Below are positions 3,620 to 4,051 of a stretch of 6,032 nt of DNA, piece after piece. The DNA comes from Escherichia phage ECO95 1-6-1. Numbering within the stretch: the first letter of the stretch is position 1; each line of letters begins with the position of its first letter. Both the position numbers and the translations under genes were made by a program. The notes below the pieces were generated by a model. It saw nothing but the letters and a program-made list of their open reading frames with translations. It ran no database searches and was not told where the DNA came from. The DNA lies in sequence record OR845271.1; one strand, written 5' to 3'.

Positions 3620-3808
3620 TCAGAATGGTAATTCGTCAGGATTAGCCAGAAATTCACCTTTGTTTATTCGCTCGTTTCTGGCTAATGAAAGGCAATTTCT
3701 TTTCATCGATTTATCACCTGACTTACGCCAGTACATTGCCTCTGTCAGGTGATACTGACGTTTTAACCTGCTCAACTCCGGTGTCCTTGCTAAATCCACT
3801 GGTATCAT
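3620..3808 (-). CDS. Hypothetical small protein (62 aa; start moved to second ATG)
   Basis: ATG at 3808..3806 is preceded by GGAGG at 5-nt spacing, whereas the track start at 3820 has none. Its ATG overlaps the TGA of the kil-like ORF. Occupies the slot between kil and the recombinase (gam in lambda, arf in P22) but shows no similarity to lambda Gam that I can see. Confidence 0.5.
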   Translation of the reverse strand: MIPVDLARTPELSRLKRQYHLTEAMYWRKSGDKSMKRNCLSLARNERINKGEFLANPDELPF

Positions 3809-3918
3809 TTCAACCTCCATTCGCGAAAGGCTTCTACAGCTTCGCGATACATTATTTTGTCACCAAGATAAACAGCAATTGCGAATTTAGACTGAATAGC
3901 CATAAGTGATTTATCCAT
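3805..3918 (-). CDS. kil: Kil-like small protein (37 aa)
   Basis: Hand translation gives MDKSLMAIQSKFAIAVYLGDKIMYREAVEAFREWRLK. Shine-Dalgarno AGGAG 9 nt upstream. It overlaps the cIII 3' end by 8 nt and sits immediately downstream of cIII as kil does in lambda. Resemblance to lambda Kil's N-terminus is from uncertain memory. Confidence 0.4.
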   Translation of the reverse strand: MDKSLMAIQSKFAIAVYLGDKIMYREAVEAFREWRLK

Positions 3919-4051
3919 TACACGGCACTCCTGGTTGATTCAGGATATCGACCAGACGTTTCCATCCGGTTCGTAATTTTCTGGTGATTCTGTCGAGAAG
4001 TGATTCAGAAGGGCAGCCAGCAATGGGCCACCCGGCAAAACAATATTGCAT
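3911..4051 (-). CDS. cIII: cIII-like protein (46 aa), the lambda FtsH-inhibiting regulator family
   Basis: Hand translation gives MQYCFAGWPIAGCPSESLLDRITRKLRTGWKRLVDILNQPGVPCNG, near-identical over its length to recalled lambda CIII (MQYAIAGWPVAGCPSESLLERITRKLRDGWKRLIDILNQPGVPKNG...). Shine-Dalgarno AAGGAG 6 nt before the ATG. Below the ORF-track size cutoff. Confidence 0.8.
   Translation of the reverse strand: MQYCFAGWPIAGCPSESLLDRITRKLRTGWKRLVDILNQPGVPCNG

Follow-up and report, generated by a model that had tools for sequence, protein, structure and literature searches.

The cIII gene of Escherichia phage ECO95 1-6-1 (OR845271.1) encodes a CIII protein of 46 aa, and we consider it highly probable that the genes concerned form an intact PL-operon cIII-kil-orf62 segment in which CIII is short solely because the third codon of the overlapping kil gene is AAA. 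The stretch of this record that we analyzed, hereafter the window, is 6,032 nt long. Neither the genes nor their overlap nor the short products are new: all are present in annotated genomes of phages, and Kil of the 37-aa type has been characterized experimentally. What we describe here is how the length of one protein is tied to a single base in the gene of another, and what this means for the reading of the locus.

The minus strand of the window is densely packed with genes, and the closest database match of the window is Salmonella phage S.Kent 1-2-1 (100% identity), followed by S135/S137 (98%), ES18 (97.4%), and epsilon34, g341c, ST64T, and L (91–97%). Family scans of the window ORFs against Pfam and PHROG place the region, as a cIII-kil-orf62 segment, in the early-left (PL) operon of a temperate phage of the P22-like/ES18-like Salmonella type (Table 1). 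The order of the minus-strand genes, from the N-like gene through cIII and kil to the recombination genes, is as in ES18, L, epsilon34, and lambda. An HTH protein gene lies on the same strand between the Rad52/Erf-like annealase and Abc2. The plus-strand gene that separates the N-like and DUF7666 genes occupies the position of sieB in P22 and lambda, and its product has paired CxxC motifs near the C-terminus. Within the DUF7666 gene, we observe a 27-nt tandem repeat (4459..4559, 3.7 copies) that encodes 9-aa SAATNTGxx units. Its homolog in ES18, gp53, has approximately 11 such units and a length of 282 aa, compared with 219 aa in the window, and the repeat number is thus variable between close relatives. 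Three antisense plus-strand ORFs (3685..3909, 3984..4349, and 3549..3752) were considered as genes and rejected, the best family match among them having an E-value of only 0.003.

Table 1. Features of the cIII-kil-orf62 region and its surroundings, listed in the direction of minus-strand transcription (positions in the window).
Feature	Position	Strand	Basis
N-like antiterminator gene	5594..5956	-	family scans
Gene between the N-like and DUF7666 genes, 167 aa	5090..5593	+	phrog_1244
DUF7666 protein gene	4251..4910	-	family scans
Intrinsic terminator	4114..4140	-	terminator scan and folding
cIII thermoregulator RNA	4006..4064	-	Rfam RF01804
cIII Shine-Dalgarno AAGGAG, 6-nt spacer to ATG	4058..4063	-	read from sequence; identical to lambda here
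cIII, 46 aa	3911..4051	-	ORF, Pfam PF02061, phrog_550
Probable kil Shine-Dalgarno AGGAG, 9 nt before kil ATG	3928..3932	-	read from sequence; role inferred
kil, 37 aa	3805..3918	-	ORF, Pfam PF06301, phrog_3924
Putative Shine-Dalgarno GGAGG of 62-aa ORF, 5 nt before its ATG	3814..3818	-	read from sequence; role inferred
62-aa ORF	3620..3808	-	phrog_1723
Rad52/Erf-like single-strand annealing protein	2904..3611	-	Pfam Rad52_Rad22 88.6 bits; phrog_1097 424 bits
Abc2, anti-RecBCD protein	2280..2573	-	family scans

The cIII product (46 aa, MQYCFAGWPIAGCPSESLLDRITRKLRTGWKRLVDILNQPGVPCNG) ends at a TAA codon at 3913..3911 on the minus strand. Its residues 2–43 match the Pfam family Lambda_CIII (PF02061) over the whole model (1–42/42) with 93.6 bits against a cutoff of 25.7, and it also matches phrog_550 (E = 8.6e-25). 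When aligned with lambda CIII, the protein is identical at 39/46 positions (85%), including 21/24 within residues 14–37, where the changes are E20D, D28T, and I34V. This is the segment that, in the part of Kobiler et al. (PMC1838920) citing Kornitzer 1991, is described as both essential and sufficient. The substitutions S17A, R24A, L26A, R27A, and R32A each lead to a cIII-minus phenotype (PMC1838920), and all five of these residues are retained in the window. AlphaFold2, run with a 19-sequence alignment, predicts a single helix spanning residues 18–37 (block-mean pLDDT of 85–88 over residues 21–40), which is strongly amphipathic: its hydrophobic moment of 0.745, compared to a shuffle mean of 0.29, is reached by 0.25% of shuffles. 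For the end of the protein, the model has low confidence and shows no structure, and in the family alignment, conservation ends at P43.

The kil product (37 aa, MDKSLMAIQSKFAIAVYLGDKIMYREAVEAFREWRLK) likewise matches the full length of its Pfam family, Lambda_Kil (PF06301; 73.6 bits vs. a cutoff of 27.6, model 1–31/31), as well as phrog_3924 (E = 1.1e-23). The initial annotation, made from the letters of the sequence alone, had placed cIII and kil homologs at these positions, and both the exact ORFs and the full-length Pfam matches bear this out. Lambda CIII has 54 aa, as the initial annotation had stated. A search of all three products, CIII, Kil, and that of the 62-aa ORF, against NCBIfam profiles gave zero model matches. 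Relative to lambda, dN/dS is 0.14 for cIII (dS of approximately 1, with synonymous sites near saturation) and 0.24 for kil (dS of approximately 1), and for the latter, values range over 0.11–0.24 across comparisons. Compared with a closer Salmonella allele, kil differs by 4 synonymous and 2 non-synonymous changes. Far from being confined to the window, kil is conserved in hundreds of phages, as seen in a tblastn of a phage collection and in contig surveys. cIII and kil are thus genes under purifying selection, not chance ORFs or pseudogenes.

As the initial annotation had noted, the end of cIII overlaps the start of kil, and the two genes share 8 nt (3911..3918, minus strand, ATGGATAA). At this junction, lambda reads AATGGATCAAACA, whereas the window reads AATGGATAAATCA. 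The decisive position is 3912, with A on the minus strand of the window and C in lambda. This base opens kil codon 3 and, in the other frame, is the second base of the cIII stop codon. Kil residue 3 is Lys (AAA) in the window and Gln (CAA) in lambda, and read in the cIII frame, this change converts GGA-TCA to GGA-TAA. CIII is therefore 8 residues shorter than that of lambda because the AAA codon of kil makes a TAA in the cIII frame.

We examined this relationship in two surveys. The first covers 89 loci, made up of 80 IMG/VR relatives, reference phages, and the window. In it, CIII ends in ...NG at all AAA loci (25/25) and has the tail of the 54-aa form at all CAA loci (62/62), while different CIII tails of 7 residues are found at the two loci whose kil is of the unrelated P22 type. 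The second consists of two exact-pattern scans of IMG/VR, each of which matched at least 120 contigs, with 240 contigs listed. Among these 240, AAA goes with a CIII of 46 or 48 aa and CAA with one of 54 aa wherever the cIII ORF could be determined, which excludes four AAA and four CAA loci. The association between the base at kil codon 3 and the length of CIII is thus complete in every determinable locus of both surveys, which covered 80 and 240 of approximately 555 IMG/VR loci. The K3 form of Kil occurs with three types of Kil (37 aa ending in RLK, 37 aa ending in RSK, and the lambda type of 47/54 aa) and with three CIII N-termini (MQY.., MTF.., and MIY..). Conversely, Q3 is combined with a 37-aa Kil in two of the listed contigs, and the lengths of the CIII tail and of Kil are therefore separable polymorphisms. 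The CIII tail that follows the invariant QPGVP is the start of kil translated out of frame, and its length varies with the kil allele. In one contig (L021, IMGVR_UViG_2526164690_000019, approximately 700..975), the junction is CCAAAAATGGAT in place of CCAAAGAATGGAT, with the result that the two genes share one frame and a CIII-Kil fusion of 91 aa is predicted.

The initial annotation had suggested that conservation of the shortening be checked in related prophages. A view of the short cIII as unusual is not supported: the ...NG stop is a common allele, present in at least 120 IMG/VR contigs as well as in phages L, epsilon34, HK629, and Stx phages, and both genes are annotated in related records. 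A narrow, single-peptide-pattern scan of genome contigs recovered one locus, from Intestinirhabdus alba, and is uninformative on taxonomic spread. It is extremely improbable that cIII is in decay or has been inactivated, with its function removed by a nonsense truncation. Such a reading draws on the deficit of 8 residues relative to lambda and on the presence of truly truncated alleles nearby, namely ES18 with its stop at codon 29 and the 28-aa protein P0032. However, the Pfam model is covered in full (42/42), the region described as sufficient in the cited part of PMC1838920 is intact along with all five required residues, dN/dS is 0.14, and the same stop is fixed, in at least 120 contigs, with three types of CIII N-terminus and three of Kil. 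Neither the alignment with lambda, nor the Pfam coverage, nor dN/dS gives any sign of a frameshifted or decayed cIII.

A further suggestion of the initial annotation, that the shortened C-terminus could alter FtsH inhibition, finds no support. We consider such an effect unlikely because the lost tail lies outside of residues 14–37, as delimited in the part of PMC1838920 noted above, and all five required residues are kept. The tail is probably dispensable, and P22 CIII, which is encoded upstream of an unrelated kil, has a different tail of 7 residues (SHDYCAC). As CIII is itself a substrate of FtsH (PMC1838920), its turnover could nonetheless depend on the tail. One may then ask whether the two tail lengths represent a functional dimorphism, in which the tail SNTYGYPD modulates FtsH turnover, oligomerization, or membrane association, and short-tail phages set a different lysis-lysogeny threshold. 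Both alleles are common (at least 120 contigs each) and the tail varies little within the CAA group (TYGYPD, NYGYPD, and NYCYPD), and these observations, together with the status of CIII as an FtsH substrate, would be in keeping with such a role. Even so, we regard it as quite unlikely: P22-type phages carry an unrelated tail, the tail is predicted, at low confidence, to be unstructured, residues 14–37 are reported to be sufficient in the cited part of PMC1838920, and the conservation of the tail is explained by selection on Kil residues 3–11, because the tail is the start of kil in another frame. That the A/C dimorphism at base 3912 is found with several forms of Kil and of CIII could be due to selection and not to hitch-hiking. 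The more specific proposal that it is a maintained two-gene switch, which exchanges Q3 and K3 in Kil while turning the 8-residue CIII tail on or off and thereby tunes the FtsH turnover of CIII and the lysis-lysogeny threshold, is in our judgment very unlikely.

Beyond what the initial annotation had described, we find that Kil is also short, that kil in turn overlaps the 62-aa ORF, and that the 5′ end of cIII carries an RNA thermoregulator. The Kil of the window is 10 residues shorter than that of lambda (37 vs. 47 aa) and represents the HK629-type short form. AlphaFold2 predicts helices at residues 3–18 and 21–36 with a turn at G19-D20 (mean pLDDT of 95.6). In Naha et al. 2025 (PMC11762379), lambda Kil was shown to be a helix-turn-helix, with helices at 4–18 and 21–38 around the same G19-D20 turn. 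ES18, L, epsilon34, and ST64T encode a Kil protein identical to that of the window. The C-terminus of the window Kil, RLK, keeps the basic R and K and has Leu in place of the Ser of RSK. According to the same study, a C-terminal polar RSK/RSSK motif is found in nearly all Kil homologs (PMC11762379), and the potency of the RLK form could therefore differ.

A Kil that lacks the C-terminal 10 residues of lambda Kil and the RSK/RSSK motif might be weakened or non-functional. Lambda Kil without its last 11 residues still blocks division, though with approximately 10-fold more intact Z rings than the full-length protein, and the authors stress the RSK/RSSK motif (PMC11762379), where the window has RLK. 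On the other hand, the HK629 Kil, which is the short Kil that was tested experimentally (PMC11762379), has 37 aa, and the still shorter Kil′, which lacks its 5 N-terminal residues, blocks division in a ZipA-dependent manner (PMC11762379). The Kil of the window shares 25/37 residues with the HK629-type Kil and has the same predicted helix-turn-helix, its gene has a dN/dS of 0.11–0.24, and its sequence is shared unchanged with ES18, L, and epsilon34, while the ending EWRLK is found in 36/120 of the listed AAA contigs. With these points against it, a weakened or non-functional Kil seems quite improbable.

Downstream, the start of the 62-aa ORF overlaps the kil stop as ATGA. This ORF corresponds to ST64T orf-66 and ES18 gp50, and matches phrog_1723 (110 bits); a Pfam scan gave no match for it. 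A start further upstream, at the in-frame ATG at 3820, would extend the protein to 66 aa, but this ATG is not preceded by a Shine-Dalgarno sequence, and related phages annotate the 62-aa start. Among the 240 listed contigs, the 62-aa ORF follows every complete 37-aa Kil with the ATGA overlap, and it occupies the position of gam. RefSeq phage records label phrog_1723 as a "recombinase," a name without evident basis. The candidate ribosome-binding sequence of this ORF falls within the last codons of kil, just as that of kil lies inside the conserved CIII codons Q-P-G-V. The CCAGGAGT motif is retained in P22 too, despite the unrelated gene that follows there. This arrangement suggests translational coupling along the cIII-kil-orf62 trio.

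Upstream of cIII on the minus strand, we observe a terminator stem-loop, GCCGCTCGCAGTCAGGGCGGC, at 4140..4120 that is followed by TTTTTT. The terminator scan assigns the stem 7 pairs, 6 of which are G-C, and the fold has an energy of -16.1 kcal/mol (z = -2.27). The ES18 record annotates a terminator at the matching position. With a strong terminator just upstream of cIII, expression of cIII-kil presumably needs N-type antitermination, as in lambda. At the 5′ end of cIII, Rfam detects the Lambda_thermo element (RF01804) over its full model (1–59/59) at 81.4 bits, against a gathering threshold of 50. The Shine-Dalgarno sequence of cIII, its start codon, and its first 15 codons all lie within the element, which by its match to this family is predicted to be an alternative-structure RNA of the lambda type with temperature switching. 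Lambda_thermo is also matched in lambda, ES18, and Stx2_3417, and was not found by the Rfam search in phage L, epsilon34, or APC_JM3.2, which have a P22-like cIII 5′ end. The cIII of the window looks like a lambda-like/P22-like mosaic because the element is present here and absent from phages with the P22-like 5′ end. In the DNA alignment, the 5′ third of the gene is lambda-like and the last two-thirds are nearly identical to phage L.

When compared to lambda (NC_001416, 33187..33463), the window shares the order and strand of cIII and kil, their out-of-frame overlap, and the Rfam thermoregulator at the 5′ end of cIII. The first residues of the two Kil proteins match at 20/34 positions, including the G19-D20 turn. 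The lengths differ, however: the cIII/kil overlap is 32 nt in lambda and 8 nt in the window, and the 47-aa lambda Kil is encoded by a gene that overlaps gam, whereas that of the window overlaps the 62-aa ORF. In place of gam-bet-exo, the window has this ORF followed by a Rad52/Erf-type annealase. P22 departs further. The core of its CIII is homologous (ESLLDRITRKLR.GWKRL.DILNQPGVP), c3 overlaps the next gene, and GGAG is found in the QPGV codons, but the 52-aa C3 has the distinct tail described above, its "kil" encodes an unrelated 62-aa protein, and arf and erf lie downstream.

The closest counterparts are found in ES18 (gp50–gp52), L, ST64T, and epsilon34 (cIII/c3, kil, and orf-66), which share the VPCNG end of cIII, the 8-nt overlap, the 62-aa ORF, and the Erf-like gene with the window, at regional DNA identities of 97.4% for ES18 and 91–97% for the others. 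L, ST64T, and epsilon34 differ in having a 48-aa CIII with a P22-like N-terminus and no match to Lambda_thermo. ES18, by contrast, shares the lambda-like 5′ end of cIII with the window but has a nonsense change from GGA to TGA at codon 29, and the window holds an ES18-type cIII in intact form. The stop in ES18 cIII (L001, 1866..1952, minus strand) interrupts the essential region, and the annotated product in that record has only 28 aa. A protein of Salmonella Weltevreden (P0032) shares this length of 28 aa and, at the protein level, ends at the same position.

The same layout extends to HK629 (NC_019711), in which a 46-aa CIII ending in VPKNG, an 8-nt overlap, a 37-aa Kil ending in RSK, ATGA, and a 62-aa ORF beginning with MIPVELAK follow one another as in the window. 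The 25 residues shared with the window Kil were counted on the Stx2_3417 allele, which ends in RSK and is one residue from that of HK629. HK629 differs in its host, E. coli, and in its downstream annealase, which is Sak4-like. The same cIII/kil arrangement is also found in Stx-converting phages such as Stx2_3417, and in APC_JM3.2 and ev099.

Taken together with the published work on lambda and HK629, these features lead us to propose how the trio would work. Transcription from PL would pass the N-like antiterminator gene and the intrinsic terminator before reaching cIII, whose translation would be governed by the lambda-type alternative-structure RNA over its ribosome-binding site. By homology, the 46-aa CIII would act like that of lambda, with its amphipathic helix (approximately residues 17–37) competitively inhibiting FtsH, and this inhibition would in turn stabilize a CII-like activator of lysogeny (C1 in P22). 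The 37-aa Kil, as a predicted helix-turn-helix, would block FtsZ-ring assembly as the Kil proteins of lambda and HK629 do. The three genes are packed by overlapping stop and start codons, first by 8 nt and then by ATGA, with each putative downstream ribosome-binding site placed within the upstream coding sequence.

The annotation of this locus is uneven across reference records. Those of L and epsilon34 annotate cIII and kil with the 8-nt overlap, those of ST64T and g341c show c3 and kil in the corresponding place, and NCBI names the 46-aa Salmonella proteins "protease FtsH-inhibitory lysogeny factor CIII." In the records of HK629 (L330, 4229..4468) and ev099 (L007, 475..744), there is no cIII CDS, and the Kil CDS is over-extended (79 and 90 aa, respectively), reading across cIII out of frame. 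Each of these phages does carry genes for a 46-aa CIII and for a normal Kil. We also considered phrog_2461 (89 positions), which is matched by both CIII and Kil, as a family of CIII-Kil fusions, and set this aside, as the over-long Kil calls in ev099 and HK629 suggest that at least some of its members are mis-extended Kil proteins. That some reference records mis-annotate cIII and kil is relevant to the annotation of small genes. The difference in CIII length from lambda is a one-base effect of overlapping frames rather than a case of gene decay, and the CIII tail past QPGVP is determined by the kil allele that follows it.
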